Shown here piece after piece: positions 2,465 through 33,782 of a DNA stretch of 33,782 bases; within the stretch, counting starts at the first letter, position 1, and the number at the start of each line of letters is the position of its first letter. The notes under the pieces are model-generated. The model saw only the letters and a list, made by a program, of their open reading frames with translations. It had not been told where the DNA came from and did no database searches. A program made the position numbers and the translations under genes. Source of the stretch: a virus (lineage: Duplodnaviria > Caudoviricetes); the IMG/VR virus record IMGVR_UViG_3300027804_001396, positions 1 to 33,782 of that record, one strand, 5' to 3'.

Positions 2465-2686
2465 ATGAAAGAAAAGTTAAATGACATGCAGGAAAAGCTG
2501 TTAGACTGTCTAATCAGCGACCTAAACGATCCAGACCGCCGTACACCAGGACTTTACACCGTTGTACGCGGTATCCTTAGCGATCACAAGGATAAGGTTA
2601 ATACCATTCCTAATGAGTCAATTGAAGCAGTCGAAGCAGCCATGAAGGATGCCGTCCCATTCAAGATTAAGAAAGCAGCATACTGA
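2465..2686 (+). CDS. terS: terminase small subunit, T7 gp18-like
   Basis: LISDLNDPDRRTPGLYTVVRGILSDHK resembles the gp18 DL..D.KR(S/T)P.LY.....L..HK signature; RBS AAGGAG; coupled to the large subunit. Confidence 0.8.
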   Translation: MKEKLNDMQEKLLDCLISDLNDPDRRTPGLYTVVRGILSDHKDKVNTIPNESIEAVEAAMKDAVPFKIKKAAY

Positions 2687-9256: not shown

Positions 9257-9268
9257 AAGGATTAATAC

Positions 9269-21000: not shown

Positions 21001-24000
21001 AAAACCTATTCTAGTGAAAACCCAGCCGTAGCTGCTTTAATGTATATTATTGGTGAAAGCTTTAGTCATACTCAAGGTCAGTTTGTAAAAGAAACTGGAT
21101 CTAGAGCAATTAGAGAAAACAGAGCTTATACCCAACAGTGGGTTGACCGAGTTGCTTATGAAATTGGACAACTTAAGATTATGTCCTCTGACACCGAGTT
21201 TGCTGCTCTTATGGAATATGCTGTTGATGTTGCTTATGGTTTACCAACAGCTACACCACCAACTGGTATTTCAGTAGACAAGATTGATCAAGCTCGGGAA
21301 GTTGGTAAGGCTATTATCATTAATTCAGATAATATGGCAGGATTTATTTATGGTGAAGGAAGAAAGTTATTTAGTGATTTACCTGTAATGCTTAACCGAG
21401 AATTACTAGGATTAAGAAAGAAGAATTCCAATCCTGCCAAAGAAGGTGAATTTGAAGCTAATAGAGCAGGACTTATCCAAGCTGCATCTGATGCAGTAGT
21501 TGATTCTGTACTAAATAAAGGTGCAATAAATGGAACACTATTCTACGCTAGTGGATTAGCTCCTCAAATTAGTGGACATCCATATAGTTTTGATAGGAAT
21601 CAGTTTATTGATCAAGAATTCTTATCTAAACTATGGGAAACAAGAAACAATAGTCCAGAAACATTTGAGATTATTTTTGAAATTGCAGTTCGTCAACTAA
21701 ATAAGATAACCAAAGATGTAGCTATATCTAGACAGATGTTACGACAATCAATGACAAATCCTAGTTTTACGCTTAATGCAAAACCAAATTTACATAGAAT
21801 TTGGGAATCAGCCACTAGAACTTTCTATCAACTTGCAAACAATACAAGAAACAGAAATGAATTAATTAAAAGTATTAATAGAATTTCTTCAAAGAGAGAA
21901 AAAGTTCCAGACATTGATTTAGTAGTTGTTCAGGATTTCTTTAATGCTATTGATGCTGCAATTGTTTCAAAACAACCAGTTAGAGACATGGGTAAGTTAT
22001 TTGTAGAAAGCACAAAAGGATCTTTCCCACCTGGAGTTACCAATATTCCAGCTGGAAAGAAATCAGCAATTGTATTGACTGCACAAACCAAAACCACATT
22101 ACCAGAAATCATGGCTGGCGTTTTCCTATCTGAACTTGGAGAATCACCTAACTATATTCTTGCTGATGGTATTATTACTGATACTCAGATTGCCAAGTCT
22201 GCTAATCTAAGAAAGTATTTCTCAAATAGACTTGATATAATCCTAAGTGATGTTGAAAGATCTAAGGGTTTTAGAGCTACTTCGGCATTGGCTATTCAAG
22301 ATAATACAGGAATTGTTGGATTTGATATCTATGATATTCTTGAGATTTTTGAATCACTGGCTAGTAATATGAATCCAAATCTATCACAAGATGCCAAGGA
22401 ATTACAAGAATCATTAATTGTAATTCGACAAAACCTAGAAATTGAACAAGGTATTCAAGCTAGAAAATTAGGAGAAGAAGACGATTGGTATACCAATTCT
22501 TTACTAAAGTGGGGTACTGAAATTACAAGAATTGCATATGGCCCAAATCTCAATACCGCATCTTTAATTATGGAAGGTGCCCTTGGTGCATTCATTACCA
22601 CTAGATATGGAGGCAATGCAACTGAGTTCTTTGTGGATCTCTTTACTGGTATCTTTAAAAATTACAAAGGTAGTTTTGAAGACATGACAACATATAATCC
22701 ACGAGGACTTGCCATTAATATGTTGTACGGAATGGAGTCTTCAATACGAAATGCCCGTGAAGTATGGGATACTACAAGTAGCAATGATATTGCCCCAGGT
22801 CCTAATAAATGGCAACGATATCGAAACCATATGAGTAAACTACAGAATTCAGTATTTAGAGGAGCTGCTGAAGCATTAACTAACCAAGCTCAACGAATTA
22901 TCGTAGAAAACCTAAATAATGGAAACTTAAATAAACTACGGACATTGTTTAAGGTAGAGGATATCAGAACACTAGATGATTTAAAAATTGCAATGAACAA
23001 GTATAAGATTAAGGGTTTACTGCCTCACATGGCATTTGAACTCAAACAAGCTGGTGTTCTAGAGGATGGAATCCTTGAAGCATATTCATACATGTTAGGA
23101 AATGTTTCTAGTAAGCATGCTAAGGCAGGAACATTAGACTTTATAGCTGCAAATAAATGGATTGAAAACCATGCGTTTACTGTAACATTTGTTGGAAAGA
23201 ATAAGTTTGATAAAGAACAAGCCAAGAGAGCTGTTGCTGTAATGTACGAAGCAACCAAGATGTTTAGAAACATTGTGCTTGTAGAAAACAATCCTTGGGA
23301 CTCAGATACTCACTCTGGAGCTTTACGATATCTATTTACCTTCTATAAACAATATTCCAATCTTTATTGGTCACAGAGAATCATCAGACAATCAGGAAAG
23401 ATGGACAAAGCAACTTTTGTTTCTATCTTAATTGGAACAACAATTGCAGATTTGGTATACAATAGTTTCTTACTAGTTGCACTTGGTATGCTTCCAATTG
23501 CTGCTTTGTTACCTTGGCATGAACAATTTGTGTTTAAAAACAAACCAATGACCACAGCAAGATTAATTCTTAGTAGAAATCCAATCTTTGGTTTAAGTGG
23601 AAACCTTATTGCTGGTTCAATTGCCTATGCTTATGAAACATATAGTGATGTTTCAAACGCTAGAGCAAATAGAAATGAATATCTAGCAACAAAGAAAGCA
23701 GTTGGCAAAGGCTTTGATGAATTAAGTTTAGACTTTGTTCCACAGCAAGCAGTTGAAACACTTACAAAAGATCCACTTACAGCATTCCTAATTGCACTGA
23801 GTGCGGGTTCAAACATGACAGAACAAGAATCATGGGACTTTAAGAATGGACTTTTAAACTCAGCAATGAGATTTGTACCTGGGGGTTTAGGTGAACTTCC
23901 AGTTCGCGTTGGAGCTACTAAGCTTGCATTAGGTGAAAGACCAGGTGTAGATAGGTTTAGAGATGTTAATGTTTCTAGACCAGAAACAGCAGCAGAACCT

Positions 24001-24081
24001 GTTGCTCCTACAGAATCATCTGAGTCAACATCTTCAAGAGATAATCCATTTAAGCCACTGCCAGTTCCAAAGGGACTGTAA
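12079..24081 (+). CDS. giant 4000-aa polyvalent virion protein: DEDDy 3'-5' exonuclease + T7-type RNAP-like domain + zincin metallopeptidase
   Basis: Exonuclease: SFDIEW (D591/E593), VGHNSLGSDSD, YLIQD (Y752/D756). RNAP-like: WDDHMSGIHHKAAML (D1349), REFFKGVIIPVVYEG (R1442/K1446/Y1454), NFIHLDG. Zincin: FSHEIAH (H2656) and NPEEFIA. Confidence 0.75.
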   Translation: MATKGCNISDFIEDLLKQTNADGTRKYTDAQIRGKLRAAFKGGLINKAQLIATTGKTDLLITEPEFVELENLATTVANSNKSMFEVLSQDQLKRFVELTNKAKNSIGSGTTGRLNQSRLTSVLDTLNETPPTKITSILDILDRSIEKAELVGDLARVDKLQKIKASFIDMADLSSKLKIDWKAISKTNSELDKLTLEYAMVKEILDIGDRETAEFKKKFAVEMLDIKDEIQKTQKRTDLTDDEKKKIIDKLIIKQQELMKKFNETTSKKFKDARRKLEKKLKTINYQIQRLKDNAPNSFLNKILISITGIDSEFFVTSLRELKERQLKTEDDIKLAEKIVEEYAEDKTFTIAEVQWLFGEDYTSTKAVKETFYEIEKNPDGSPKKDSTNKPIKKRKERITLDEVKELLSLWSEFKRSKSYESTVSTLESTRINNILLAGDDKLVSEVEPEDALPIARTHTEAKTAKVGYRYDPRKVADRVKGVKDLQTALQRLTYLSSLPNHKGYISAGMLIGVLGQDAQSLFHRFDDAIMDDLELDNPDQTESETTMEGRRLVLQANLEKLGFTSSEILAMPEFTDAGYVDNFTKVVSFDIEWEPNTNNIIAVGIVEYINGNPVPAHTEVIWSRSGKDQYLTKDDAEEVLQRLHTYQNSGFKVVGHNSLGSDSDMQKLVSVSGNTNLGMAVAIRSLDTMLLGFRNSPMGTFTRTYGPSLDNLSKALGTGSKASKAGVTGVTAHEAWKASHASGDYTDFTDYLIQDVALTGRNLLEMVHRKNTTVDVNNSRGEPQPVQLFDITPIWYDTGKPEIGRNQRYRGVGVLFDIVSFKNMQEQMGLGLSQSVMYDVAKLKNVTIQMILALMKADNKSDIDTIFAALNAREETLIENFDSLLEISRSNHTAYLPILREIRRANRNEFLLDASRVSGSEVVYSKTPTKSVYETNALEEVISTLAAYNRNPQRSLDKFARLVGFRERNEGESALSYLRELFNYSATKFNNQNLTISDFGDGTFDYVPAKQLGRGFAQLVLGHIDDGLKLSQNIKTPVDVIDQRREEAELDGEKIEFEDIDNLVEKREYLPLTKQNVSYFAPLSMFEQERMYNDFALRQRYHYILNHNLTDDDLREFEDWRKVNPVVELKNDIKLKQAILKELRDKTLKTEADLDRLEKVYFPSGMTFVTPFDDYFLFDTSISFEDKVKQTKLLLAESKQNLKTYLEGLDKGRLEQGRVQRYNLHLVPNNRSIYSRIPTMEEMEEMSLEIALDLPQFIATFVHDSVNLMDSANVVVAGENHWEMPELSSGGPTGAARLAGIDAQLAWLMSHPELGRDPELLKELTRKSLENGWKQFTSRGWSRSTYWDDHMSGIHHKAAMLWSYFPDSTFKAQGGLLAILQGIKDGSVSKEKLKDYYVETYSQLEIALDKVEQEFTNAGLTKNVNQIQKIRTLLNGSTEVREFFKGVIIPVVYEGGYDAALTGLRDKQKSKISPGDPIHQLNDEDLKEITRILTETGIVVQGRLVDEILGLDTNKVRELMKLFEQGVERLAPNLKTATDAMFKRNPILRDNFIHLDGVREGIKIRLQTIAEYTMPAYLENEPRVKQEEWINKRVAFLENKWQKRINAALDIVKKNGGSIKVGSQVERDFHVALAGDQAAFKTQMTLLGINKMQNSGIKLNSSDRDILEASVMTGRHIADSDLMFTDHVVFTTVGIGTGSGRAQYVGNYLTNLHGSKLSKGNRYVENPDGSINWKETVKNSAWSLVGNNLTGLPKDVAKKKLRELAVKNYLLTVATDYPPTMIGYNMDDESRGQFFKEWQERSRKEREWEANERLTDIEKLKAAYTAEGRTLTDEQIEQAIASNSTPRNKRLGTRILAPTITTNDDDAVMSVEDAKGLAGFRPRLADNAFEDRIVHGLYSIYQGIKKLNLGTEKVRENLERIEKEGMTPDKVFDMENSRATQYDPNKLGVYFPEVESSLVESIFGERPTFNQRVLRLKYVLDTFARKNGLQDLIDNKEYATVYQIYKIRQSLKKFSFLVSQKVMQPYELRYLHRHMVQQIFRLTKAQRDATNVKTNILDLSKSIGIDPEHFRYPDNTNMRWLDVLKTLADLGIEEVSTLRFGMSPVEMLTTETGAAPDIISGRKTAIFPNTIQGGDVAVIFERIWANDLVQKEAKVYLDNLVKTGVITGYKTDQTNKYVLLSSLDKATEQQVLEHILGNDELIMGAAENLGLFVDFEMGTSENILRLQNSQFHANTDGVYINPQRGLGEITVSRVVEGSQNIKFYLTPEAVKRILRGARNSGLFTRIETAVQINKFLGTSTTVDQLRREKYAEYLDSHLDQLADETDILAELQGDNLQRLRTDRLRDSMGIELNLYDAEYYFHNEDSITNLTPFKNAVTLDIRIAAERASRYPALQTEYGVLNRLMTEDKNQWWFLRIGFAIFLQNNLGRTLTEQELKIILEEHFGEKFTDVKYNEFTTKLSQVTNIIDRINHSPFKGKNKYLHLAIKHREQMLAVPQTFNDKFDVFSFIKNFGVPVEDHDLAAQAVIEAYAIVENKANLPEAYSTIPSNDLIKIASSSTDFDIAFPEGKQINAQLVKLKMDGVIDDETETFYRLLIGKVLKHNPHLAKFLSIKIDDLGTIRAGEAVKDGDRFIINLNPTILKNMGRIDQIRVFSHEIAHIARLAFIKDNGPEWRKIESLFRSKRGSQGIETMLLVMNNNQRYEGFEQDLRYFKENPEEFIAFWGGWMLVEQVFNNVDVMKFIQSRSTAAYAVTMGYKTAFHRIRDEVKAISSGLYDIDEQVFNEVLDLTEALFGFTSSIEREIFVANENKTLGYLGDFDEPISNTGRDVDELARLTQDERNGVPLNALDQLKLASLRNKYSSGPIQNLDIVEYKRLRQKRESLQGSSLLKPTHREHPGYTGVSVQDLSSEEKLEIAQTVVSETIARRKNTSINQSSLGGSARLASEKVFGKKATRNLLAFRHYWGTMGLTRANKTYSSENPAVAALMYIIGESFSHTQGQFVKETGSRAIRENRAYTQQWVDRVAYEIGQLKIMSSDTEFAALMEYAVDVAYGLPTATPPTGISVDKIDQAREVGKAIIINSDNMAGFIYGEGRKLFSDLPVMLNRELLGLRKKNSNPAKEGEFEANRAGLIQAASDAVVDSVLNKGAINGTLFYASGLAPQISGHPYSFDRNQFIDQEFLSKLWETRNNSPETFEIIFEIAVRQLNKITKDVAISRQMLRQSMTNPSFTLNAKPNLHRIWESATRTFYQLANNTRNRNELIKSINRISSKREKVPDIDLVVVQDFFNAIDAAIVSKQPVRDMGKLFVESTKGSFPPGVTNIPAGKKSAIVLTAQTKTTLPEIMAGVFLSELGESPNYILADGIITDTQIAKSANLRKYFSNRLDIILSDVERSKGFRATSALAIQDNTGIVGFDIYDILEIFESLASNMNPNLSQDAKELQESLIVIRQNLEIEQGIQARKLGEEDDWYTNSLLKWGTEITRIAYGPNLNTASLIMEGALGAFITTRYGGNATEFFVDLFTGIFKNYKGSFEDMTTYNPRGLAINMLYGMESSIRNAREVWDTTSSNDIAPGPNKWQRYRNHMSKLQNSVFRGAAEALTNQAQRIIVENLNNGNLNKLRTLFKVEDIRTLDDLKIAMNKYKIKGLLPHMAFELKQAGVLEDGILEAYSYMLGNVSSKHAKAGTLDFIAANKWIENHAFTVTFVGKNKFDKEQAKRAVAVMYEATKMFRNIVLVENNPWDSDTHSGALRYLFTFYKQYSNLYWSQRIIRQSGKMDKATFVSILIGTTIADLVYNSFLLVALGMLPIAALLPWHEQFVFKNKPMTTARLILSRNPIFGLSGNLIAGSIAYAYETYSDVSNARANRNEYLATKKAVGKGFDELSLDFVPQQAVETLTKDPLTAFLIALSAGSNMTEQESWDFKNGLLNSAMRFVPGGLGELPVRVGATKLALGERPGVDRFRDVNVSRPETAAEPVAPTESSESTSSRDNPFKPLPVPKGL

Positions 24082-24172
24082 GAAATCGACTTTGGGGTCA
24101 GAAATTTTTGTGGGGGGTTTGGATGTTAGGTTTGTTGCCTAACCCCCCTCACCCCCAGTTGAAAGGAACTGT

Positions 24173-24334
24173 ATGGGTCATTTCTGGAAAGCCCTGAAGA
24201 TCGTGTTCGGGGCCATCATCGGTCTGCTCTTTCTCATGGCTGCGGTTAGCGCAGTCACCTGGGAGTGGGCAATCCTTTGTTTCGCCATGTTTTGCATGAT
24301 GTTTACTTTCGTTATGCAGAATGTGTGCGAGTGA
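24173..24334 (+). CDS. small two-TM membrane protein, 53 aa (not in ORF track)
   Basis: MGHFWKALKIVFGAIIGLLFLMAAVSAVTWEWAILCFAMFCMMFTFVMQNVCE with RBS GAAAGGAA upstream. Confidence 0.65.
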   Translation: MGHFWKALKIVFGAIIGLLFLMAAVSAVTWEWAILCFAMFCMMFTFVMQNVCE

Positions 24335-24343
24335 CAACCAACA

Positions 24344-24432
24344 CTCCGTGCTCTCCCTTCGGGGAGAGCGCGGGGATGTTAGCTGTTGCTAACACTGTGC
24401 TTGTGCAGATCACAGGCAATTTAACGAGGAGA
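24344..24432 (+). promoter_or_regulatory. multi-hairpin intergenic leader, copy 1
   Basis: Long cUUCGg hairpin, then TGTTAGC-tgtt-GCTAACA, then CTTGTG-cagat-CACAGG, then the RBS. Confidence 0.6.
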
Positions 24433-24436
24433 GCAC

Positions 24437-24598
24437 ATGCTCTACTACGTCACTGTTGAGCGGGATGGAGTTCACGTCGAGACGCACAAGTTCGCTTCCT
24501 GGAAGGAAGCGCGTCAGTACGCCTACGCAGTCAAGGCTGCGCGGCGTGGCGTGGAGGTCTGGATCGGACAAGACGGCGAAGGCGCCGTCAAGATCTGA
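24437..24598 (+). CDS. small hypothetical protein, 53 aa (not in ORF track)
   Basis: MLYYVTVERDGVHVETHKFASWKEARQYAYAVKAARRGVEVWIGQDGEGAVKI; RBS GAGGAG; fills the gap between two leader repeats. Confidence 0.7.
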   Translation: MLYYVTVERDGVHVETHKFASWKEARQYAYAVKAARRGVEVWIGQDGEGAVKI

Positions 24599-24617
24599 TC
24601 TACCGCAACGACCAACA

Positions 24618-24703
24618 CCCCGCTCCTCTGCTACGGCAGGGGGGCGGGGATGTTAGCCGTTGCTAACACCGTACCTATGCGGAACATAGGCTATTCAAAG
24701 GAG
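24618..24703 (+). promoter_or_regulatory. multi-hairpin intergenic leader, copy 2
   Basis: Long cUACGg hairpin, TGTTAGC-cgtt-GCTAACA, CCTATG-cggaa-CATAGG, then CTATTCAAAGGAG. Confidence 0.65.
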
Positions 24704-24711
24704 TAAAGCCA

Positions 24712-25227
24712 ATGGCTTTGCTTACGAAGGCGGTTAGCTGGAGCTCCATCGTGGAGCTCGGCGCAAAGCTCTGCGACCACTGTCGCGGAGAAAACGGAAA
24801 GGCTTTCAAGGAAGCCTTTCTTCTGGGGCAGCGTTGTCCCCAGAACTCGCTGTCCTTTGGGGGCCGCGAAGCGGCCCTCAATGGCAAGTTCGCCATCGCG
24901 TCATCTTTTGCTTGGCTCAAGACCAAGCAGGAGATCGACGTTCTGGAGGCTCGCCTCCTGAACGAAACGTACTCCCTGCGCGGGGAGTACGAGTACGGAC
25001 ACGCCGTGGAGGAACTGGATCAGTTCCTGCACGGGCTCTCTGCATATGCAGAGAGTGACGTCGATTACCTGATGTGGCAGAGCGCCACGTCAGGTACGCG
25101 GATCGTCTGCGTCCGCAAGACGCAGCGGTCTGAGTCCAGGGGCACAACGCACACCTGGATCGCGGAGTACCACGAGGGCCACAAGCTTTCGCAGTACGGC
25201 GCGCTGTGGTCAGAAATGACCGCGTGA
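24712..25227 (+). CDS. hypothetical early protein, 171 aa
   Basis: RBS AAAGGAG, GC-rich third codon positions, one CxxC (CDHC). Confidence 0.7.
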   Translation: MALLTKAVSWSSIVELGAKLCDHCRGENGKAFKEAFLLGQRCPQNSLSFGGREAALNGKFAIASSFAWLKTKQEIDVLEARLLNETYSLRGEYEYGHAVEELDQFLHGLSAYAESDVDYLMWQSATSGTRIVCVRKTQRSESRGTTHTWIAEYHEGHKLSQYGALWSEMTA

Positions 25228-25240
25228 CGGCACTACCGTC

Positions 25241-25331
25241 GCTCTCTCCTAGGTAGGTCCCTAGGAGAGAGCTTTCGGCTGCGCTGTTGCAGCACACCGT
25301 ACCTGTGCGGATCACAGGCTATTCAAAGGAG
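25241..25331 (+). promoter_or_regulatory. multi-hairpin intergenic leader, copy 3
   Basis: 13-bp hairpin, GCTGC-gctgtt-GCAGC, then a 38-nt block that is 35/38 identical to copy 2. Confidence 0.65.
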
Positions 25332-25338
25332 GAGCCAC

Positions 25339-25629
25339 ATGGCTCAATCCGACAAGTGGGTCATCACGACCCGCTACCTGGTGATGGAAGGACCGAAGGC
25401 AATCCTGTCTCGGTCGTCCATCTTGGACGCGATTGATGATTGTGCACAGAGGCATCTGTGCTACATTCGCAGGGAAACTACCATTAAGGTTGATGAAACC
25501 TTGACGGTGATTTCCAACTGCGACATCAACCTTCCAATTCTTCCTGTACACGACATCTACAACATCCCGAATGGGATGGATTACGATGCGCTGAAGAAGC
25601 GAATGCAGGAGGTGTTCTACGGTAAGTAA
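25339..25629 (+). CDS. hypothetical early protein, 96 aa
   Basis: Strong RBS AAAGGAGGAG; bounded by leader hairpins. Confidence 0.7.
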   Translation: MAQSDKWVITTRYLVMEGPKAILSRSSILDAIDDCAQRHLCYIRRETTIKVDETLTVISNCDINLPILPVHDIYNIPNGMDYDALKKRMQEVFYGK

Positions 25630-25769
25630 GAACTAAACGATCCTACCCAAGCCCCCTAGGTTTTCCTAGGGGGCGAAGGGCTGTATCGTTACAGCAAACC
25701 CCTAACGGCATTGAGGGGTGCCCATTCTGGGCCTACATTCAAACCAGGGCACAGCCCTAGGAGAATACA

Positions 25770-27584
25770 ATGCCTGTTTCCTTTGCTAGTCTTCCGACTA
25801 GCGCAAAGGTTACGCACTTCATCACGGACTTGGTCATCAAGTCTGGAGAGGCGCGTAACCAGCCTTCCTTTGTGGAGGCGGTCAAGGTTCGTTGGGATAA
25901 CACCGTTATTCCAGCCCTTGAGAACGGCGACCTGACGGTGTTCCAGGTCGGTGACGAGAAGTGGATGCGTAACCCGTCGTCAAGGATGACGAAGGACTAC
26001 CGCGTCTGCCTCAGCCCGAGGACCCTGCGTCACAGCGACACGACCAGCAAGAGCGGATTCGATCTGCCCCTGCTGTACGCCGCTGAGCAGGACGCTCGGA
26101 GCCAGATCAAGTTCACGGTGAATCGCCAGTTGCTGGCGATCATCCAGAACTCGGCCCTGGTTCCCGAGCTCGCTGCCGAATTCGGAAAGGACCCTGCCAT
26201 TGCTGTGGCAGAACGGTTCCTCCGTTCGGCGGAAGGGACGAAGCAGTTCCACTTCTTCATCCCGCCGTTCCTGGACGATGTCGGCCGCGAGTATGGTGAG
26301 GGAATGCTCACCTACACGGGCAGCCAGATGATCCGCAACCTGATCGAGTTCTACGACCAGCTGGACTACAGCATGGACGAACTCAAGGAGCTTGAGCCCA
26401 TGATCATTCATGCGGCTGGAGTCTCCCTGAAGAACTACGAGGACGTGATCAAGAAGGCGAACGACATCCTGTCGGGCAAGTGGAAGTTCAAGAATCCGTG
26501 GCTCACGCTGCGGATGGCGATCTTCTACCAGGAGGTCATCACCACTGGGCGCTCTGGTGCCCATCTGGAGTTCGACTTCCGCACCAGCGGACCCATGCTC
26601 CTTGGTCTGATGTCTGGCGACCGCAACATGATGGTTGATACCAACATGTTCGGCGCTGACGGACGCGACTGCCGTAACACGGTGATCAGCCTTGTTACGG
26701 TGCCCCTTGCTCTTCGCAAGTGGGAGTCCCGTCTTCTGACCAAGGACGTGGCAAAGCCGTTCGTGACCCAGACCACCTACGGTCAGGGTCCGAGTGGTGC
26801 TGCCTCAGGGCTGTTCTGGAAGGATGACGATAAGGCTCCAGCCAACTGGCTGAACGCCTTCGGCATCCCCAACACGGTTGTCCTTGACGCTGTGTGGTCG
26901 AAGAGGCCGAACCTCTTCAACCCCGAGTGGATGGACATCGTCCGCGAACTCGGGTGGGTCGAGGGCTACTCGGCTCTCCACGATCTGGCTTCGCAGTACT
27001 ATAACGCTTTCTGGGGTGCATACCACCAGCTCAAGCGTTTCTGCCAGCAGATCCAGGAGGCCAGTGAGGCCCAGCAGCTTGCCACTGGCAAGAAGCCGTC
27101 CTACACCAACGTCTCCGACTGGACCTACAATCACCACAAGTGGGTGATGAAGGAAGGTGGCAAGGTCATTCGCTGTCGCTACAATGGCGACAAGTGCAAG
27201 GACTTCCCCAAGGGGTTCGAAGTCTCCATCGGTGAGATGGTGGACATCGCTTCCCCGTACAGCATGGTGGTTCGTATGACCCACCAGGCTGACGCCTGGA
27301 TCCGTATGATGGCCTTCTGGTCCATCTACAAGTTCCAGATCGCCACCTTCGGGCGGTACGTCGGTCACATGGCGGTTCACGATGCGTTCATCGTGCCCGT
27401 CAAGATGGGACCGAAGATGCACAAGGTGATGCGTCCCGTGATGCATCAGTTTGTGAACAAGTACGTTCCGCACGTCCACAAGTGGATGCGTGACCACGGG
27501 CAGGAGCCGCCCGTGATCACCAAGGATCAGCTCAAGCTGGTCCACTGGTCCATCGCCAACAACACCTCGTGGCTCAACCTCTGA
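25770..27584 (+). CDS. single-subunit T7-type DNA-dependent RNA polymerase, N-terminally shortened (604 aa)
   Basis: Motifs in canonical order: FFIPPFLDDVGREY (DxxGR, D169), EFDFRTSG (motif A, D269), KDVAKPFVTQTTYG (motif B, K329/Y337), THQADA (H505), AVHDAF (motif C, D538). RBS AGGAG. Confidence 0.85.
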   Translation: MPVSFASLPTSAKVTHFITDLVIKSGEARNQPSFVEAVKVRWDNTVIPALENGDLTVFQVGDEKWMRNPSSRMTKDYRVCLSPRTLRHSDTTSKSGFDLPLLYAAEQDARSQIKFTVNRQLLAIIQNSALVPELAAEFGKDPAIAVAERFLRSAEGTKQFHFFIPPFLDDVGREYGEGMLTYTGSQMIRNLIEFYDQLDYSMDELKELEPMIIHAAGVSLKNYEDVIKKANDILSGKWKFKNPWLTLRMAIFYQEVITTGRSGAHLEFDFRTSGPMLLGLMSGDRNMMVDTNMFGADGRDCRNTVISLVTVPLALRKWESRLLTKDVAKPFVTQTTYGQGPSGAASGLFWKDDDKAPANWLNAFGIPNTVVLDAVWSKRPNLFNPEWMDIVRELGWVEGYSALHDLASQYYNAFWGAYHQLKRFCQQIQEASEAQQLATGKKPSYTNVSDWTYNHHKWVMKEGGKVIRCRYNGDKCKDFPKGFEVSIGEMVDIASPYSMVVRMTHQADAWIRMMAFWSIYKFQIATFGRYVGHMAVHDAFIVPVKMGPKMHKVMRPVMHQFVNKYVPHVHKWMRDHGQEPPVITKDQLKLVHWSIANNTSWLNL

Positions 27585-27715
27585 CCGCCTCTAACCGCAT
27601 GGCACGGGGGAAACCCCGTGCTGTGCTTTGGGCATTTCTGCCCACCTCGCCTACGGAGAACCCAGTAGGGGATTTCCTGTTATCCCAAAGAACAGGCTTT
27701 TAGGAGATTGTCACC

Positions 27716-28126
27716 ATGAGTGGCAACATCAACGTCGGTGCTCGTCAGGTCATCCGCAACGCCGAGGGCAAGCTCATCGGGACCTTCATCCCGTCGAAGA
27801 AGCACCTGGGCAAGATCGCCCTGACCACCTACCTCCCCACGGGGGAGGCGCACACCACGATCCGTGGCCAGGAGGACTGGATCCAGATCAAGGACCGCAA
27901 CCCCGATTGGGACTTCGCTCCCTCCTACTACACGGTCAAGTGCAAGAAGGAGGGCGATGAGGTGGTGATCGAGCTGACCCACAACGCCATCCCCGAGTGG
28001 AACACCACGTTCCGCGTGCCCCACACGCCGAACTGGCAGGACTCGTTCCTGATCTCGTTCCGCATGGGCATGATGACGCTGGGTCGCGAGACGCACATCG
28101 GCAACTTTGTCGATCTGACCGTCTGA
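27716..28126 (+). CDS. hypothetical early protein, 136 aa
   Basis: RBS AGGAG, strong C/G third-position bias, directly after the RNAP gene. Confidence 0.75.
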   Translation: MSGNINVGARQVIRNAEGKLIGTFIPSKKHLGKIALTTYLPTGEAHTTIRGQEDWIQIKDRNPDWDFAPSYYTVKCKKEGDEVVIELTHNAIPEWNTTFRVPHTPNWQDSFLISFRMGMMTLGRETHIGNFVDLTV

Positions 28127-28153
28127 CACAGGCCGCAACAGCCTCGGAGCAAA

Positions 28154-28175
28154 CCCCCTTGGGCAACCAAGGGGG
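28154..28175 (+). terminator. GC-rich GCAA-loop hairpin, possible terminator or processing site
   Basis: CCCCCTTGG-gcaa-CCAAGGGGG after the 136-aa gene; the U-tract is weak and displaced. Confidence 0.35.
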
Positions 28176-28286
28176 CCTCTCCCTGTTTGTTAGGGCTTTG
28201 GTAGGCATGGGTATACTAGACTATACCCTTTCTGTAGGCATAGAACTCAGGGTAGTTATAGACTTATAGTCAAAATGGTATTACAG

Positions 28287-28316
28287 ACCATACCATACCA
28301 TACCCTACCATACCCC
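28287..28316. repeat. tandem pentamer repeat, (ACCAT)-like x6
   Basis: accat accat accat accct accat acccc within a non-coding stretch. Confidence 0.8.
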
Positions 28317-28635
28317 TAGTTATGCATCAGAATGTCTCTAATGGCATTCTAGGGCCATTTCCTGCCATTCTATGGTCTGTATGGCATCAGAATTCAAATT
28401 ATATGGGCATATACATGGGTATGCCCCTGCTAATTTCCCATAATATCAGTATTTATCGTCCCCTTCGGGGACCGTTGTGGATCATTGGATCTCGTCAATG
28501 CATGGATGAATATCCAATATGTACTTTATGGAGGAATCTATAAAGTATATTTCACTAGGCTATGACCTAGGACTGACATACCAAGGTATAGCAGCGTAGC
28601 TAATCTTGGCATGGCAGAACACAGGAGAGGACAAT

Positions 28636-28896
28636 ATGTCCGCAGACAACACGCAGTCTGATACCGTGCCGCAGGGTGAGATCGTGAAGTTCGACCCCAT
28701 CCAGGCGATGCTCCGTTCTGGCCAGATCACCATCACCAGCAAGGGTGAGTCGAACTGGCCTGGGAACTACAAGAACCTCAATGACCGTCAGGTCATGAAT
28801 CTTGTCAAGATGGTCATGGATGGCAAGGCTCGTCGGCCTGAAACCGTCAAGGCCATCCTGACCGAAGCCCATGAGCGTGGGCTGGTCACGGCATGA
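28636..28896 (+). CDS. hypothetical protein, 86 aa from ATG 28636
   Basis: RBS AGGAGAGGA upstream of MSADNTQ...; flanked by identical 20-nt UUCG hairpins. Confidence 0.7.
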   Translation: MSADNTQSDTVPQGEIVKFDPIQAMLRSGQITITSKGESNWPGNYKNLNDRQVMNLVKMVMDGKARRPETVKAILTEAHERGLVTA

Positions 28897-29452
28897 GGTA
28901 TCGTCCCCTTCGGGGACCACGGTGGTCTATGGGGAAACCCATAGATCACATTTCCAATCACCAACTAGCCATTGTATAAATGGGTAGTGCCTTAATGGTG
29001 TACTCTACAGCTTGGCTTACCTGTAGACATTACCTGATAGGTGAGTTATCAGGCGCTGCCCAAGAGCGGTAGTCAAACCTCTTGGTATTCACCTGAGCAA
29101 TGTGCCTAAACTGCTCAATGGTGTATGCAACCTGGCAAGTTACCAATTAACTGGGCAGGAGGGCCTGAGCATAACTAAGCCCTACCATAAAAAGGGCTCT
29201 AGCCTGCTGGTTAAGGCGATTCTTGAAAAAATAGAATCAAGAACAACCAGGCACCTGAGCAAGTGTAGTAAACTGCTCACTTCTGTAATCTACGGTCATA
29301 CTGTAGATGGGTACCACAGAAAGGGGGTGTCTAAATGACACTTCAACATCTCAATTAGGTTTCAACAGTTAAGGCGGAATCCCACCGCCAAAGACATACC
29401 TAAATGGGTGAGCCTTTGTTGAAGGTCCGTAGGGTAGTAGCCTACATCAACA

Positions 29453-29522
29453 ACTCGCTTGGACGAGTATAAATAGCGGGTTAGGTCCAAGGCGCCCCCT
29501 CCCATAACAATGGGGGGTCCCG
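29453..29522 (+). ncRNA. pistol self-cleaving ribozyme
   Basis: P1 ACTCG/CGAGT; loop CTTGGA pairs with TCCAAG; ATAAATAG linker; P2 CGGG/CCCG; TTAGG; conserved GCG; P3 hairpin; GT cleavage junction at 29517/29518. Confidence 0.88.
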
Positions 29523-29702
29523 ACTGACACCAGCCGTGGCACCTATGGACTTGAAACACCCATAGAAAACTATGCCAGTTTCAACGGCAATGGGCTAACA
29601 AGTAAGGGGTAACTGACCCACACTGCTTACTTGGAAGGGTATATAGGGTTACATGGGGCCCCTTAGCGGAAACGCTATGGGGTCTTTTCGAAGGAGGTCT
29701 AC

Positions 29703-29948
29703 ATGACCAATAGCAAGTACAAGCTAGGCCGCTGTCCATTCGAATACATGGACTGCGTGGCAGACCGTCCGTGGGACACCTACGGACCCAACTTCTCATG
29801 GGGAGAGTTTAAATCTCTTCAAAGAGATCTTGAGGATGTCCGCGATAGGCTTCTAGATCAACGAGACGAGTTGATCGACCAGATCAATGCTCTCCAGAAC
29901 GTATTGCTGGAGCACAATCTGCCATTTCCAAAGCCCAAGGGAGTTTAA
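29703..29948 (+). CDS. hypothetical coiled-coil protein, 81 aa, embedded in the ncRNA region
   Basis: Perfect RBS AAGGAGGT; heptad pattern LQRDLEDVRDRLLDQRDELIDQINALQNVL. Confidence 0.7.
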   Translation: MTNSKYKLGRCPFEYMDCVADRPWDTYGPNFSWGEFKSLQRDLEDVRDRLLDQRDELIDQINALQNVLLEHNLPFPKPKGV

Positions 29949-30616
29949 TCTCCCGATAGGCATTCACCGCAAGCAACCTAGCCCACAGGCGGTATACAAA
30001 TAGTGGGACACACATTATGTGTAGACCTGAGCAAGTCATTAAAAGGCTCAAAACACAGCAAGGCAAGTATCCAAATAGCTGGGAGCAGCGGTGCACAGGA
30101 TACCCGACTTGCAGACCTGAGCATGTCCTGTTAAACTGCTCAAATATACTCCCAAGTGGGCTTGGTGAAGGATAACCAAGAATTGGTAGCTTGCAAACAA
30201 GACTATCAGAATAAAAACCTTTGGACTAATCGCAACCTTGTCGAACAACACAAGGTTGTATAGGACTCCCTAGACTTGATGATCATCAAGTGGGGATACG
30301 CGGGATGCACCCCGTGCAGGCTTATCACAAGCCCGTGTTATACCTCACCAAGTGGAGGTGGGCCTCTATAGTTGCTGCCAAGCTATAGTTGATTAATGGC
30401 ACCGTGTTACTCCGAGCGGGCAATTCGGAGCTTTATACCAAGTCCACACGACAATCGTACCTGATTGTCCTAGCCTATTGGTAGGGGTGTGTACGCAACT
30501 AACTGTCCGTGGTTAGTTGAGACAGATAAAGAAACGGACTAGGTATGCGGTATTGACGCACCGCAACTGATTAAAGTCGTGGTATCCGTGGGTGAAATAT
30601 CCCACGGGTACCTTTC

Positions 30617-30727
30617 GGGTGTCGCAAGGATTGCACATGCGGTGTTTTGACAATAGTTAGATGTTAAAACCACTACCTAACTGTAGGAAGCATGTTGAAA
30701 TGGGGTTCGAATCCCCTTACACTCACC
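30617..30727 (+). ncRNA. tRNA-like / mini-tmRNA-like RNA with one internal pseudoknot
   Basis: Acceptor GGGTGT/ACACTC plus ACC; stemless D-loop; ACATGC/GCATGT helix enclosing a pseudoknot; T-arm GGGG-TTCGAAT-CCCC. Confidence 0.55.
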
Positions 30728-30728
30728 T

Positions 30729-30794
30729 TCTAATCAAACCAAGTGTCACTACTTGGTTATCCTAGTGGGGTTCGAATCCCCAATGTTGGAGCCA
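30729..30794 (+). ncRNA. D-armless tRNA-like element ending in CCA
   Basis: TCTAAT/GTTGGA acceptor-like pairing, 8-bp hairpin AACCAAGT/ACTTGGTT, T-arm TGGGG-TTCGAAT-CCCCA, 3' GCCA. Confidence 0.45.
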
Positions 30795-30930
30795 ATTCCC
30801 GTGTAACGGGGCGCGCTATGGGCTACAGTGCTATGGGACTGGCCTAGGCTGTGTTGACCGAGCAGTATAATTCGGTCCCTTATAAGATATACTCTCGCGT
30901 TGAGAGTATGCCTTTACAGGAGAGTTCGAT

Positions 30931-31053
30931 ATGAACGACTCGATCTGTCAGTGTGGTAAGCCCTATAACTCTGATGAGTGTTATGGTTACTGCCATATCT
31001 GTATTGATTCTTGGTTTGCAAATGGTTGTCAAACCACAATTGGAGATGAATAA
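30931..31053 (+). CDS. small Cys-rich protein, 40 aa (not in ORF track)
   Basis: MNDSICQCGKPYNSDECYGYCHICIDSWFANGCQTTIGDE; RBS AGGAG; coupled to the next ORF (TAATG). Confidence 0.6.
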   Translation: MNDSICQCGKPYNSDECYGYCHICIDSWFANGCQTTIGDE

Positions 31054-31199
31054 TGAGCAAGCAGAAGAAGAACAAGCGTCGTAAGCGTAAGTCGGGTTAC
31101 GTTAACCTGACTCCGTCCCAGGGATGGAATACTGAGGTCTACTCCTTTGAGAGTCTGGCCTTTGTCCTCAGGGTCGTGTATCCAGAGAAGTTCAAGTAA
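31053..31199 (+). CDS. small protein with Lys/Arg-rich N-terminus, 48 aa (not in ORF track)
   Basis: MSKQKKNKRRKRKSGYVNLTPSQGWNTEVYSFESLAFVLRVVYPEKFK; RBS GGAG. Confidence 0.6.
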   Translation: MSKQKKNKRRKRKSGYVNLTPSQGWNTEVYSFESLAFVLRVVYPEKFK

Positions 31200-31209
31200 G
31201 GAAACAACA

Positions 31210-31284
31210 ATGGATAATTGGGATGTTCTGGCAGACTGGGAAGAGCTGATGAAGCAGTACGAACAGGAGAATGACGATGAGTGA
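31210..31284 (+). CDS. acidic 24-aa peptide (not in ORF track)
   Basis: MDNWDVLADWEELMKQYEQENDDE; RBS AAGGA; overlaps the next start. Confidence 0.45.
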   Translation: MDNWDVLADWEELMKQYEQENDDE

Positions 31285-31528
31285 TCTAAGTGGAATCCGA
31301 ATCGCGCTTTGGGAGGTCAACTCGGACAATCCCAATAGCCCCAAGTTTAATGGTATTGTTACCATTAATGGAGTCGAGCACAAGGTGTCCCTCTGGGACA
31401 ACGCAGGAGCGACCCACCCTAAGGCACCTCGCCTTAAGGGTAAGACGTCTCGGCCATCCCCTAAGGGGGATGTGTCAATGAATACTGAAACCTTTGTCAC
31501 CCCAGGTGGCATTGAGCTTCCGTTCTAA
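31271..31528 (+). CDS. small putative ssDNA-binding protein (DUF736-like) with an SSB-type C-terminal LPF tail
   Basis: IALWEVNSDNPNSPKFNGIVTINGVEHKVSLW pattern; ends in IELPF. Confidence 0.55.
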   Translation: MTMSDLSGIRIALWEVNSDNPNSPKFNGIVTINGVEHKVSLWDNAGATHPKAPRLKGKTSRPSPKGDVSMNTETFVTPGGIELPF

Positions 31529-31529
31529 A

Positions 31530-31560
31530 CGAATGAGCATAGGGAAACCTATGCTCGTTC
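31530..31560 (+). terminator. GAAA-loop hairpin after the SSB-like gene
   Basis: GAATGAGCATAGG-gaaa-CCTATGCTCGTTC; no clear U-tract. Confidence 0.35.
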
Positions 31561-31660
31561 ACTTCCGAATACCCTAGTATGTAGCTAGGGGTTCAACCCA
31601 AGATACTTAGGTTTATAATAATATAGTAATTATTATACCTAGGTTAACCTAGGAGAGTAT

Positions 31661-32050
31661 ATGTCTATTATCAAAGAGGTTGTTAAGCGACTTGAGTGTA
31701 CCCTGGTTAAGCAGTATTGCGATAGCAATGGCTACCAGGGTTGTGACTATTACCTTCTTGAGAAGGATGGCAAGTACAGCATTACTGCTCACGCCTTTGG
31801 GACTTGTGAGCTTTGCGATAGCTACCTGGGTCTTACCCAAGAGTGGCTGAATAACAATCCTGAGCATCAGTCTTGGGATGTTCCCCTTGAGGCTTACGAG
31901 TCCATGATCTTGTTCATTATGGAGCAAGCCACTGATTGTGGCTGGTGTACCAAGGATGAACTGTCGGCTAAGTTGCACATGCACATTGGAATGGGTTATT
32001 CCGATGTGTCGATTGAGTTTGAAATCAGAAAGGATCTCAATGGGACTTGA
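31661..32050 (+). CDS. hypothetical Cys-containing protein, 129 aa
   Basis: RBS AGGAGAG; FGTCELCD and CGWC motifs. Confidence 0.7.
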   Translation: MSIIKEVVKRLECTLVKQYCDSNGYQGCDYYLLEKDGKYSITAHAFGTCELCDSYLGLTQEWLNNNPEHQSWDVPLEAYESMILFIMEQATDCGWCTKDELSAKLHMHIGMGYSDVSIEFEIRKDLNGT

Positions 32051-32435
32051 TACCTACGCGGCATATGGAAAGGATCATCACAAATTTAGTGATGATCCGA
32101 AGGCTACCAACTTGGTACCCAATAGTTTGTTCCCCGAGAACAAACTCTGTGGCGGTTTGTTCTCTGGGGGTGGTAACTCCTTCAGGGGCAAGGTTTATAA
32201 TGATTGGGTTGAGTACTGCACTGGTGTCTCCCTCTGTGAAGAGGAGATTCCAGCAGATGTCGTAGAGCAAATGTATAAGGCTCTTTCGAACCAGACTAAC
32301 CCAGTTATCTTCGCAGAGTTTAACAACTCTGGATGTAACGATACTTATCAAATTAGCTTTGAGGAGGTACAGGATCTCCTCAAGTGGTTCGAAGTTGTTA
32401 AGGATGAAGGAGCCACCATCATTGGATGGTGGTAA
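32040..32435 (+). CDS. hypothetical phage protein, 131 aa from MGLDTY
   Basis: ATG 32040 with RBS AAAGGA; the MGLD-x-Y start and terminal WW are a common small phage-protein pattern. Confidence 0.7.
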   Translation: MGLDTYAAYGKDHHKFSDDPKATNLVPNSLFPENKLCGGLFSGGGNSFRGKVYNDWVEYCTGVSLCEEEIPADVVEQMYKALSNQTNPVIFAEFNNSGCNDTYQISFEEVQDLLKWFEVVKDEGATIIGWW

Positions 32436-32441
32436 ATAACT

Positions 32442-32813
32442 ATGAATAAGATTGATCTGTCGGTTGTTGATCGTAAGGTTGCTGAGCGTAAGAATAAGAT
32501 TAATACTTATGCTCAGTCAGCCAAGGTGCCGTCCTATGTGGCGGCTATGTACATTGACGAGAATGCTCCCCTGACCACCAACAAGGCAATGCTCAAGGAG
32601 ATTGGCCTTAAGGTTGATGTGGTCACTGAGGACAATGTTTCTATGGTCATTGTTGGCCTTGAGGCAATCAACATCAAGCTTCTTGGTACCGAGAGTGTCA
32701 ATAAGCCTCGGCTTGCCAAGGTTGTTAATGACATCATCAATGAGGAAGTCCCTGAGTGTTGGGGTGGTCCTGACATGCAGGAGTTCATTGACATCACTCC
32801 TGATGAGGTTTGA
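32442..32813 (+). CDS. hypothetical protein, 123 aa
   Basis: Tightly packed ORF with codon bias matching its neighbours. Confidence 0.7.
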   Translation: MNKIDLSVVDRKVAERKNKINTYAQSAKVPSYVAAMYIDENAPLTTNKAMLKEIGLKVDVVTEDNVSMVIVGLEAINIKLLGTESVNKPRLAKVVNDIINEEVPECWGGPDMQEFIDITPDEV

Positions 32814-33046
32814 AGGTACAAAAGATGCTAACTGCTAAGCACGAAAACGATGTTCATTGTGTGTTTGTTTGTAACCCAAGCAACCACTATGATCCTAAGG
32901 TTTGTATTGCAGCATTTACTTCCATTAGGGATGCTGCTTTGTTTGCTGATATTCTCGGGGTTCGATACGTTATCGAGCCCTATCCCCGTGACTCCGTGAT
33001 GGTCCGTGACATTAAGATTGTGGAATCTCTTTACTATGGCAACTAA
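32810..33046 (+). CDS. hypothetical protein, about 78 aa (TTG start uncertain)
   Basis: Overlaps the previous stop; GAGG upstream. Confidence 0.55.
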   Translation: MKVQKMLTAKHENDVHCVFVCNPSNHYDPKVCIAAFTSIRDAALFADILGVRYVIEPYPRDSVMVRDIKIVESLYYGN

Positions 33047-33290
33047 TATTGTTTCTGCCTACTCTGGCTACACGTTTACTATTCCCGATAAGCTGACCTT
33101 TAACATGACTACTTCGTTTGAGACGAATCGTAGTTACAATTATGGTCCCTCCATTTACGTCGAGATCGGTGATCGGCGTATCAGCATCACCTATGATGAT
33201 CTCCTTGATCTGAATGATGAGATCCAGAAGATGCTTGATCTGGCTAAGAACATCCCCCATACGGAGAATGTGAATGGTTTCTACCGCTAA
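33036..33290 (+). CDS. hypothetical protein, 84 aa from MATNIV
   Basis: In-frame ATG at 33036 overlaps the end of the previous gene. Confidence 0.6.
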   Translation: MATNIVSAYSGYTFTIPDKLTFNMTTSFETNRSYNYGPSIYVEIGDRRISITYDDLLDLNDEIQKMLDLAKNIPHTENVNGFYR

Positions 33291-33298
33291 TCCTTGGG

Positions 33299-33535
33299 AT
33301 GATGAGTATGATCCCAATGATGACCCCATGTGTGGATTCAACGAATATGGAACTGAACCCTCTGAAATCGAAACTGATCCGCAATACGGATCCCTCGACC
33401 GCTGGTATCATTAATGATCTGTTTGATCGGGGAATCATTGCTGATTTCTCCGATGACGGATGGGTATTGTACAACCGAGAGTGGTATCCTTTTACCACCT
33501 TCATCGAAAGGATGAAAATCATTGAGCGCATTTAA
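33299..33535 (+). CDS. hypothetical protein, up to 78 aa (start uncertain)
   Basis: Fills the gap between neighbouring genes on the coding strand. Confidence 0.5.
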   Translation: MMSMIPMMTPCVDSTNMELNPLKSKLIRNTDPSTAGIINDLFDRGIIADFSDDGWVLYNREWYPFTTFIERMKIIERI

Positions 33536-33782
33536 TTCTATTGGAAGCCCCATTGAGGGGCTGTCTACGACTCAGGCTATGACTGAGGCTCGACTTGATT
33601 GGACGGTCAGTAAGCGTCCCATCTTCGTACTGTCTGAAAACGATCAGGATTGGCATGGTACTAGCAAGTTCTTTGCTACTACTCGTGACGATAACGACCA
33701 CATCCTTGGTGTTGTTGGTCCTGATTATCAGGTCGTTCAGAACGAAGAGCTGATGTATCTTTGCGAGCGACTGCAAGGATCT
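33522..33782 (+). CDS. DUF932-like phage/plasmid protein, 3'-truncated by the window (not in ORF track)
   Basis: TTG start after GAAAGGA; ARLDWTVSKRP...FATTRDDNDHILGVVGPDYQVVQNEE matches the DUF932 N-terminal pattern. Confidence 0.75.
   Translation, partial: MSAFNSIGSPIEGLSTTQAMTEARLDWTVSKRPIFVLSENDQDWHGTSKFFATTRDDNDHILGVVGPDYQVVQNEELMYLCERLQGS

Follow-up and report, generated by a model that had tools for sequence, protein, structure and literature searches.

The array and its place in the genome

The virus record IMGVR_UViG_3300027804_001396 was analyzed over its whole length of 33,782 nucleotides (nt), hereafter the window. At 28899..30910 it carries an array of about 2 kilobases (kb) made up of a pistol ribozyme and some 15 other folded RNA modules, none of the latter present in Rfam. 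The array, whose features given below all lie on the + strand, begins directly 3' of the stop codon of the first early open reading frame (ORF; 28636..28896, + strand, 86 amino acids, aa), which has homologs at 62-91% in the related loci L132-L134 and no PHROG or Pfam match.

The surroundings are those of a T7-like (Autographiviridae-type) phage. A T7-type terminase pair lies at 2465-4350 of the window, its nearest cultured matches being 34-38% identical, and the single-subunit RNA polymerase, which the window stops short of, is found in the relatives L139 and L154, some 4.4 kb past the next conserved gene. In both relatives a conserved SSB-like gene stands just 3' of the array, followed by a DUF932 gene, ThyX and the polymerase. 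Therefore, the array was placed between the first small ORF and the polymerase gene; in T7 the corresponding part of the genome is read by the host polymerase. A blastn search of the region against 50,697 GenBank phages gave no match. All 23 rows of sequencing runs containing the stretch had a freshwater or lake water label, with exact pieces of the stretch in four runs.

Relatives were collected by a search with the flanking proteins. The first four loci contained three true ones and a spurious homolog, L135, which was discarded; 8 viral and 31 metagenome loci were added later, many of them partial or near-duplicate. The occurrence of each module was counted by nhmmer over 29 loci, with L144-L146 left out as identical or near-identical to the window.

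We found a single credible ORF in the array, at 29703..29948 (81 aa), as the initial annotation of this DNA had stated. It is preceded by GGAGG, has full-length homologs at 66-69% in 2 of 19 loci, is itself an optional cassette and has no family in the ESM Atlas. The other six of the seven ORFs tested (at least 50 aa) had no Shine-Dalgarno site and partial matches only, and for four of the six some relatives carry stops. An Rfam scan of the window, at gathering thresholds and at E<=10, returned the pistol and otherwise sub-threshold scraps; no single large phage RNA family covered the region. ARAGORN found no transfer RNA (tRNA) in the window.

Folding is raised in the array. Among 100-nt segments, taken on either strand, 15 of 39 had z<-2 in the array (mean -1.76 on the + strand) compared to 11 of 67 in the background (mean -0.90). 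A crude scan for H-type pseudoknots gave 18 candidates, against 7.0+/-2.2 in 200 shuffles, none of which reached 18. The folding z-scores do not separate the strands. The + strand, on which the initial annotation had also placed the RNA, is favored by the pistol, by all four copies of a repeated pseudoknot, by tetraloops (GNRA 3 vs 1, UNCG 2 vs 0) and by the top-scoring H-type folds, eight of which lie on the + strand and one on the - strand.

The pistol ribozyme and the conserved core

The pistol at 29453..29522 scored 48 bits with the Rfam covariance model RF02679, compared to the gathering score of 34.5, which bears out its recognition in the initial annotation. Helices P1, P2 and P3 and the P1-loop pseudoknot are all present, with 95.5% of cells paired across 14 loci. 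In the same 14 loci two-sided changes occur in 7 of 16 pairs, five of these being among the six pseudoknot pairs. The two-nucleotide GU junction between P3 and P2 is G29517-U29518, and self-cleavage is predicted between these two nucleotides by the rule given in PMC4604425.

The ribozyme was above threshold in three of the first four loci, all but the spurious L135, and among 17 later loci it was above threshold in 11. Three of the six later misses are shortened pistols, and the remaining three loci do not cover it whole. The shortened forms (L156 4455-4515, L158 4625-4685 and L170 915-980) keep the pseudoknot, P2, P3 and the GU junction; they are without P1 and/or the A-rich linker and fall under the Rfam threshold. 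In L178, on the minus strand, a pistol at about 1175-1335 of the reversed locus has an insertion of about 100 nt in P3.

On its 3' side the pistol is followed by three modules with which it forms a conserved core. Module B (29533..29588; 15/29 loci) is a nested three-helix fold with a loop-bulge pseudoknot of 7 base pairs (bp); 97% of its cells are paired, and two-sided changes were seen in 4 of 22 pairs. Module C (29592..29653; 13/29 loci) has a long covarying stem, with a predicted pairing between its loop and a GGGU further 3', and shows two-sided changes in 10 of 13 pairs when one poorly aligned distant row is counted in. Module D (29655..29689; 15/29 loci), a GAAA-capped hairpin followed by UUUU, makes the 3' edge of the core, and matches of relatives end there, at 29688-29692. 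Adjoining the 5' side of the pistol is module M7 (29373..29450; 7/29 loci), a predicted pseudoknot with two hairpins.

Covarying modules outside the core

Module A (29966..30010) combines a bulged stem, a loop-tail pseudoknot and an A-rich linker, and was found in 20 of the 29 loci. Its two-sided changes fall in five of the six pseudoknot pairs (5/11 pairs overall), none of 500 shuffles matched its score, and its two stems never vary. Module A also occurs in the more distant phages L191, L195, L197, L199 and L202.

Module G (30226..30401; 10/29 loci by nhmmer) is an RNA of about 180 nt built on a conserved GUAWMGGACUC/GAUACGC core; it also has kissing loops and, on the 3' side, a pseudoknot. 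Two-sided changes were observed in 12 of 24 pairs, and the kissing loops change jointly between two sequence types; the kissing-loop and tail pairings are possible in 15 of 15 sequences while the sequence itself changes. A likeness of G to a permuted cyclic di-AMP aptamer was rejected on inspection, as the words common to both form different pairs. In collection scans B and G were seen only in this clade. Chance matches made up about half of the 32 matches of A, most of the 59 of B and 6 of the 11 of G in those scans, and full-fold matches only were used.

A compact pseudoknot of 28 nt

A compact pseudoknot of the CUGAGCA/UGCUCA type stands at 29089..29117 (PK1) and 29251..29279 (PK2), and it recurs as a variant at 30023..30050 (PK3) and again at 30113..30142 (PK4). 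All four copies on the + strand of the window lie within the array, and three are exact matches, compared to none in 100 shuffles.

We observed that this motif reaches far beyond the array. By estimate, about 3,900 viral contig stretches and some 520 genome stretches carry one variant, with G-C in stem 2; about 700 stretches have the compensated A-U pair instead, and 65 have the A.C mismatch. In stem 1 the three variable positions are paired in 124, 122 and 107 of 130 cases, compared to an expected fraction of 0.43-0.46. Among the genome matches the full stem 1 is present in only 37 of the 119 examined. Of 79 viral cases, 35 have a stop codon 7-18 nt before the motif, compared to 2.0% of random positions; among the 37 genome cases with full stem 1, a stop codon 8-16 nt before it was seen in 21. 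In 8 of 81 loci a tRNA begins 4-12 nt downstream. By its distribution in sequence collections, then, one module of the array is a very widespread putative gene-end pseudoknot, and it may cap RNA 3' ends.

No Rfam family covers the motif over 20 loci with the pseudoknot, and a 41-nt query against GenBank phages (blastn) gave four weak matches (E 2-8) with no annotation. One locus, L001, has at 1950-2030 an 81-nt match of 61 bits to transfer-messenger RNA (tmRNA), a very short tmRNA-like unit among the tRNA genes of another phage.

With the compact pseudoknot, the modules that show compensatory changes number six: the pistol, A, B, C, G and this motif. The comparison with homologous loci thus speaks for folded RNA in the array, as the initial annotation had proposed.

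T-loop units

Two identical T-loop hairpins stand at 30701-30716 and 30766-30781. The first belongs to T1 (30617..30728), a tRNA-shaped unit whose predicted fold has an acceptor-like stem of 6 bp, a GG-loop hairpin, a pseudoknot arm and the T-loop hairpin. From the T-loop to the end of T1 there are 12 steps (6+6), with one U.U mismatch; a T-loop/acceptor stack of 12 steps is the rule for substrates of RNase P and RNase Z. Stacks of 5+7 were found in three sequence-unrelated units, in L132/L172, L156 and L199, with GG soon after the 5' strand. In mononucleotide shuffles 12-step acceptor/T stacks appeared at 0.01 units per set. The edges of the DNA cassette, 30617 and 30728, coincide with the ends of T1. 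Because of the 12-step stack and these edges, cutting of T1 by enzymes of the RNase P/Z type is plausible.

The second hairpin belongs to T2 (30730..30794), a predicted pseudoknot with a T-loop hairpin, weak acceptor-like pairing and CCA at 30792-30794; evidence for cutting of the same type at T2 is weak. Neither ARAGORN nor RF00005 gave a cloverleaf with an anticodon arm in the array, T1 and its three counterparts have no anticodon, and the sole tRNA in 20 relatives lies outside the array. A tmRNA was rejected as well, with a match to 15 nt of T-loop (12 vs 47 bits) and none by ARAGORN.

Shuffling of cassettes among relatives

At the corresponding position, related T7-like freshwater phages have arrays that combine the modules differently. 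Module maps were drawn for 20 arrays. Sixteen clade loci extend as far as the pistol, and their arrays measure about 0.7-2.0 kb. A pistol-B-C-D-A core is frequent; outside the core, modules are gained, lost, duplicated and reordered freely. We also observed joints in the DNA runs at which whole modules had been removed or moved: 30051>30400, 30145>30617, 30224>30439, 30430>30880 and 30728>30145. The last four of these coincide with module edges, and joints fall 1-3 nt 3' of PK3 and PK4 (cassette junctions at 30051 and 30145). Given this shuffled order and these joints, one giant fold is ruled out. The modules are independently swapped cassettes, a point that the initial annotation had missed, as it had the widespread gene-end pseudoknot among them.

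Pairs of more distant phages (L195 with L202, and L191 with L197) have the same kinds of modules in two smaller blocks, around ORFs or beside real tRNA genes.

RNA-library contigs

Contigs of two metatranscriptome lake studies match the array exactly, with 0 differences, at 28964-29493 (X2) and 28938-29492 (X5). Their presence in RNA libraries agrees with the transcription that the initial annotation presupposed; such contigs may hold DNA. Both stop without a loose end 24-25 nt before the predicted pistol cut, at the foot of P3, and a DNA run, X1, continues past this point. A second X2 contig (30254-30590, one run only) stops 27 nt before T1, inside a terminal hairpin. The ends are a weak hint of a long precursor that is cut. 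Contigs toward the 5' side of the array had depths of 80 and 40, compared to 3-9 for most other exact pieces; these depths, like the gap in coverage 3' of the pistol, are unfit for ranking expression. Run X23, a small-share run from related strains, was left out. One RNA-library contig, X22 record 10 (2,197 nt), spans the array of a relative up to the SSB-like gene.

Other features of the array and of the window

The array opens with twin hairpins with UUCG and GAAA loops (28899..28947; z -3.55; 5/29 loci). They are followed by module M1 (28958..29046), an uncatalogued fold detected in 2 of 29 loci by nhmmer and in more by a short motif, and by the predicted H-type pseudoknot W3 (29053..29086), which has an 88% match in L133/L134 and one compensatory change in the loop pairing, judged by eye. 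Module F (30058..30112; 6/29 loci) is a multi-bulged hairpin. Downstream of G lie hairpin I, CCGAGC...AAUUCGG, at 30403..30432 with a related copy at 30850-30876 (15/29 and 6/29 loci), and block J (30439..30616; 3/29 loci), made of predicted pseudoknots and hairpins, which precedes G in L156 and begins at the joint 30224>30439. A conserved hairpin leader with the Shine-Dalgarno site of the next early gene stands at 30880..30925 (18/29 loci). The early coding DNA further downstream (31300-31750; tile 31770-33782) shows folding z-scores down to -5.5 and a high crude pseudoknot score.

The first of the twin hairpins, GUCCCC-loop-GGGGAC with a conserved tail, is present at the start of the array (28899-28925) and before the first gene (28454-28480), as well as in L132 (5142), L134 (1345), L138 and L158, with varying loops. 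The idea that it is a promoter of a virion polymerase is unsupported because the 4000-aa protein encoded in the window has no Pfam, PHROG or credible PDB match. This protein belongs to one of three giant ORFs (1364, 936 and 4000 aa) within 5162-24081, with guanine-cytosine (GC) content of 32-38% and no Pfam or PHROG match. At 24-28 kb the GC content rises abruptly to 55-60%. Three related leaders of about 110 nt (24330-24437, 24600-24710 and 25230-25338), each with a hairpin, a near-palindrome, a hairpin and a Shine-Dalgarno site, precede small GC-rich ORFs there and are possibly a second cassette system at the opposite genome end. The stretch 28130-28450, 5' of the first gene, is AT-richer with short ATACC repeats, other short repeats standing there in relatives; we take it to resemble a T7-type genome end.

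Interpretation and alternatives

On comparative grounds we consider the array real. We read it, with slightly less than even confidence, as a mosaic island of folded-RNA cassettes carried in an early transcript that would be cut into small stable decoy RNAs acting in trans. Host RNA polymerase would transcribe the array within the first early transcript, and the pistol would cleave this precursor at 29517/29518. RNase P and RNase Z would release T1 by reading its 12-step stack, and 3' ends would be protected by the compact pseudoknots, which stand at the close of cassettes in this array and after stop codons elsewhere. Acting in trans, the released RNAs would most plausibly serve as decoys, aimed at RNA-binding or defense proteins of the host. 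This decoy role, the least supported step, is argued from the position of the array among early accessory genes of fast turnover and from a tRNA-like shape without anticodon.

Some observations qualify the initial annotation, and others weigh against this proposal. The nearly continuous hairpins described in the initial annotation were recovered as raised folding, but the rise is moderate, and by z-score the neighboring early genes at 31300-31750 are as strongly folded as the array. In the crude H-type scan three non-overlapping tiles outside the array, in coding DNA, score 16-17; therefore, it is covariation, and not the count of 18, that carries the earlier figure of about ten pseudoknots. 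The covariation counts for A, B, C, G and the pistol alike overstate the number of independent events because the loci are closely related, and the pseudoknot helix of B shows zero two-sided changes among the loci aligned. For 29195-29250 and 30146-30225 nhmmer found no homolog in the 29 loci, and therefore no covariation test applies to them.

The two tRNA mimics of the initial annotation survive as two identical T-loop hairpins and the T1 stack, but not as a pair of complete units. T2 keeps three pairs of its acceptor-like stem in the fold, its scripted partner lies inside T1, probably by chance, and its T-loop part has no homolog in the 29 loci (nhmmer). Sequence homologs of T1 were found in 0 of the 29 loci by the same search. 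Apart from the U.U mismatch in its stack, T1 has no encoded CCA (it ends in ACCU), and the units of relatives end in U-rich tails.

As for a ribozyme-cut polycistronic precursor, proposed earlier, it fits the covariation and the contig ends, and cleavage itself is predicted from the sequence. X22 record 10 and X2 record 4, both RNA-library contigs from related strains, run across the pistol, and therefore cutting would be incomplete, unless the libraries contain DNA. Complementary DNAs could also end simply at a strong hairpin. Such contigs show neither strand, ends nor level, and the runs were picked for holding the stretch.

A more far-reaching form of the proposal, which we regard as possible and rather doubtful, makes the array a set of RNA "accessory genes" that this T7-like clade carries as an exchangeable arsenal. 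A chain of ten to twenty uncatalogued small RNAs, cut by the ribozyme and capped by pseudoknots, would be delivered in the first minute of infection and would titrate host defense and RNA-processing proteins. Its contents would be tRNA-elbow mimics, kissing-loop and double-pseudoknot folds, and possibly new ribozymes.

The foremost rival reading, on the unlikely side, is action in cis, where the folds would cut, stabilize or insulate the early transcript, or serve antitermination during genome entry, and the pieces would be by-products. The RNase III sites of T7 and the put RNAs of HK022 are models of such action. The compact pseudoknot is a gene-end element elsewhere, the pistol stands directly after the stop of the first gene in L143, L150 and L171, ordinary ORFs are flanked by modules A and J in L195, L199, L191 and L197, and the gene for the phage polymerase comes downstream of the array. 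On the other hand, processing would call for far fewer than ten to twenty different folds in series with no ORF between them; G, B and T1 are elaborate, with covariation at a distance from any gene, and the turnover of content is that of cargo.

The array could also be a heap of leftover gene-end elements and hitch-hiking ribozymes, driven by recombination and with little RNA function, which we think improbable. The deletions and back-jumps at repeat-bounded edges would suit such a heap, as would the optional nature of the one ORF, and shuffling mediated by PeSL cassettes is a precedent (PMC2839356). In T4-type phages these cassettes are described there as promoter-terminator units around ORFs. 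Like them, the array has small repeated elements and modular shuffling in a hypervariable early region, but it carries folded RNA as cargo and shows no enrichment of promoter-like sites. In 24000-33782 there are 9 sigma-70 promoter-like sites (one within the array) against 9.8 expected, and 12 terminators against 8.2 expected, with no excess and no repeated promoter and terminator per unit. The heap is further opposed by the compensatory changes retained in the pistol, A, B, C and G, and by the retention of at least about 0.7 kb in each spanning relative.

We give little credence to the repeated pseudoknot as a mimic of a type III antitoxin. The motif is small, of the H-type and present four times, and the pseudo-ToxI of phage phiTE, an expanded repeat resembling a known antitoxin (PMC3475682), is a precedent for phage non-coding RNA that mimics host RNA to escape defense. 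Yet the array has neither antitoxin resemblance nor tandem repeat: its copies are dispersed at spacings of 162, 772 and 90 nt, Rfam gave no match to ToxI or any other antitoxin family, and the motif follows stop codons over thousands of unrelated viral contigs. The antitoxin mimicry suggested in the initial annotation thus finds no such match here.

Least probable of all is a single large ornate RNA comparable to GOLLD or ROOL: these are single conserved folds, often near tRNA islands and of unknown function (PMC12286853, PMC5737381), and the array resembles them as a long, pseudoknot-rich phage RNA, spanned in a relative by the 2,197-nt contig, but it consists of small independent folds chained in varying combinations, with no GOLLD, ROOL or OLE match in Rfam, no single conserved architecture, module order and content that change freely over a threefold range of length, an internal ribozyme and an internal ORF.

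Relation to known systems and significance

Of the known systems, phage tRNA clusters resemble the proposed island of cassettes as polycistronic non-coding transcripts cut by host tRNA-processing enzymes and/or a ribozyme, cutting being predicted in our case. In T4 the stable species 1 and 2 RNAs are co-transcribed with the tRNA cluster, and theta ribozymes occur in phage tRNA clusters (PMC10879173). The array differs in having no tRNA, a pistol instead of a ribozyme like that of hepatitis delta virus, a place in a T7-like early region, and swappable modules that are mostly uncatalogued.

The pistol itself is known (RF02679), shares P1, P2, P3, the pseudoknot and the 2-nt GU junction with its family, and belongs to a class known near phage genes (PMC4604425). 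It accounts for 70 of the 2,012 nt, has shortened forms in three relatives, and here heads the conserved B-C-D block inside a cassette array. New, as judged from sequence comparison, appear to be the organization of the array and several of its RNA folds. In line with the initial remark that no equivalent had been described, the literature found, in the parts of it that were accessible, has no description of such an array or pseudoknot; two catalogs, PMC5737381 and PMC10690425, with 224 and 10,006 candidate RNAs, may hold some of the modules.

The array adds five or more covarying RNA folds that Rfam lacks (A, B, C, G and the compact pseudoknot), together with a recurring tRNA-shaped scaffold without anticodon. 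The 28-nt pseudoknot, with about 3,900 viral stretches for one variant, is frequent enough for a general phage RNA-end signal. The reason for the association of ribozymes with phage genes is unknown according to PMC10085705, and the array offers a concrete candidate job for a pistol ribozyme in phages. If the cassettes act in trans, early hypervariable regions would carry RNA cargo that protein-centered annotation and anti-defense screens have missed. Were the array an exchangeable arsenal of RNA accessory genes, it would be the RNA counterpart of an anti-defense island.

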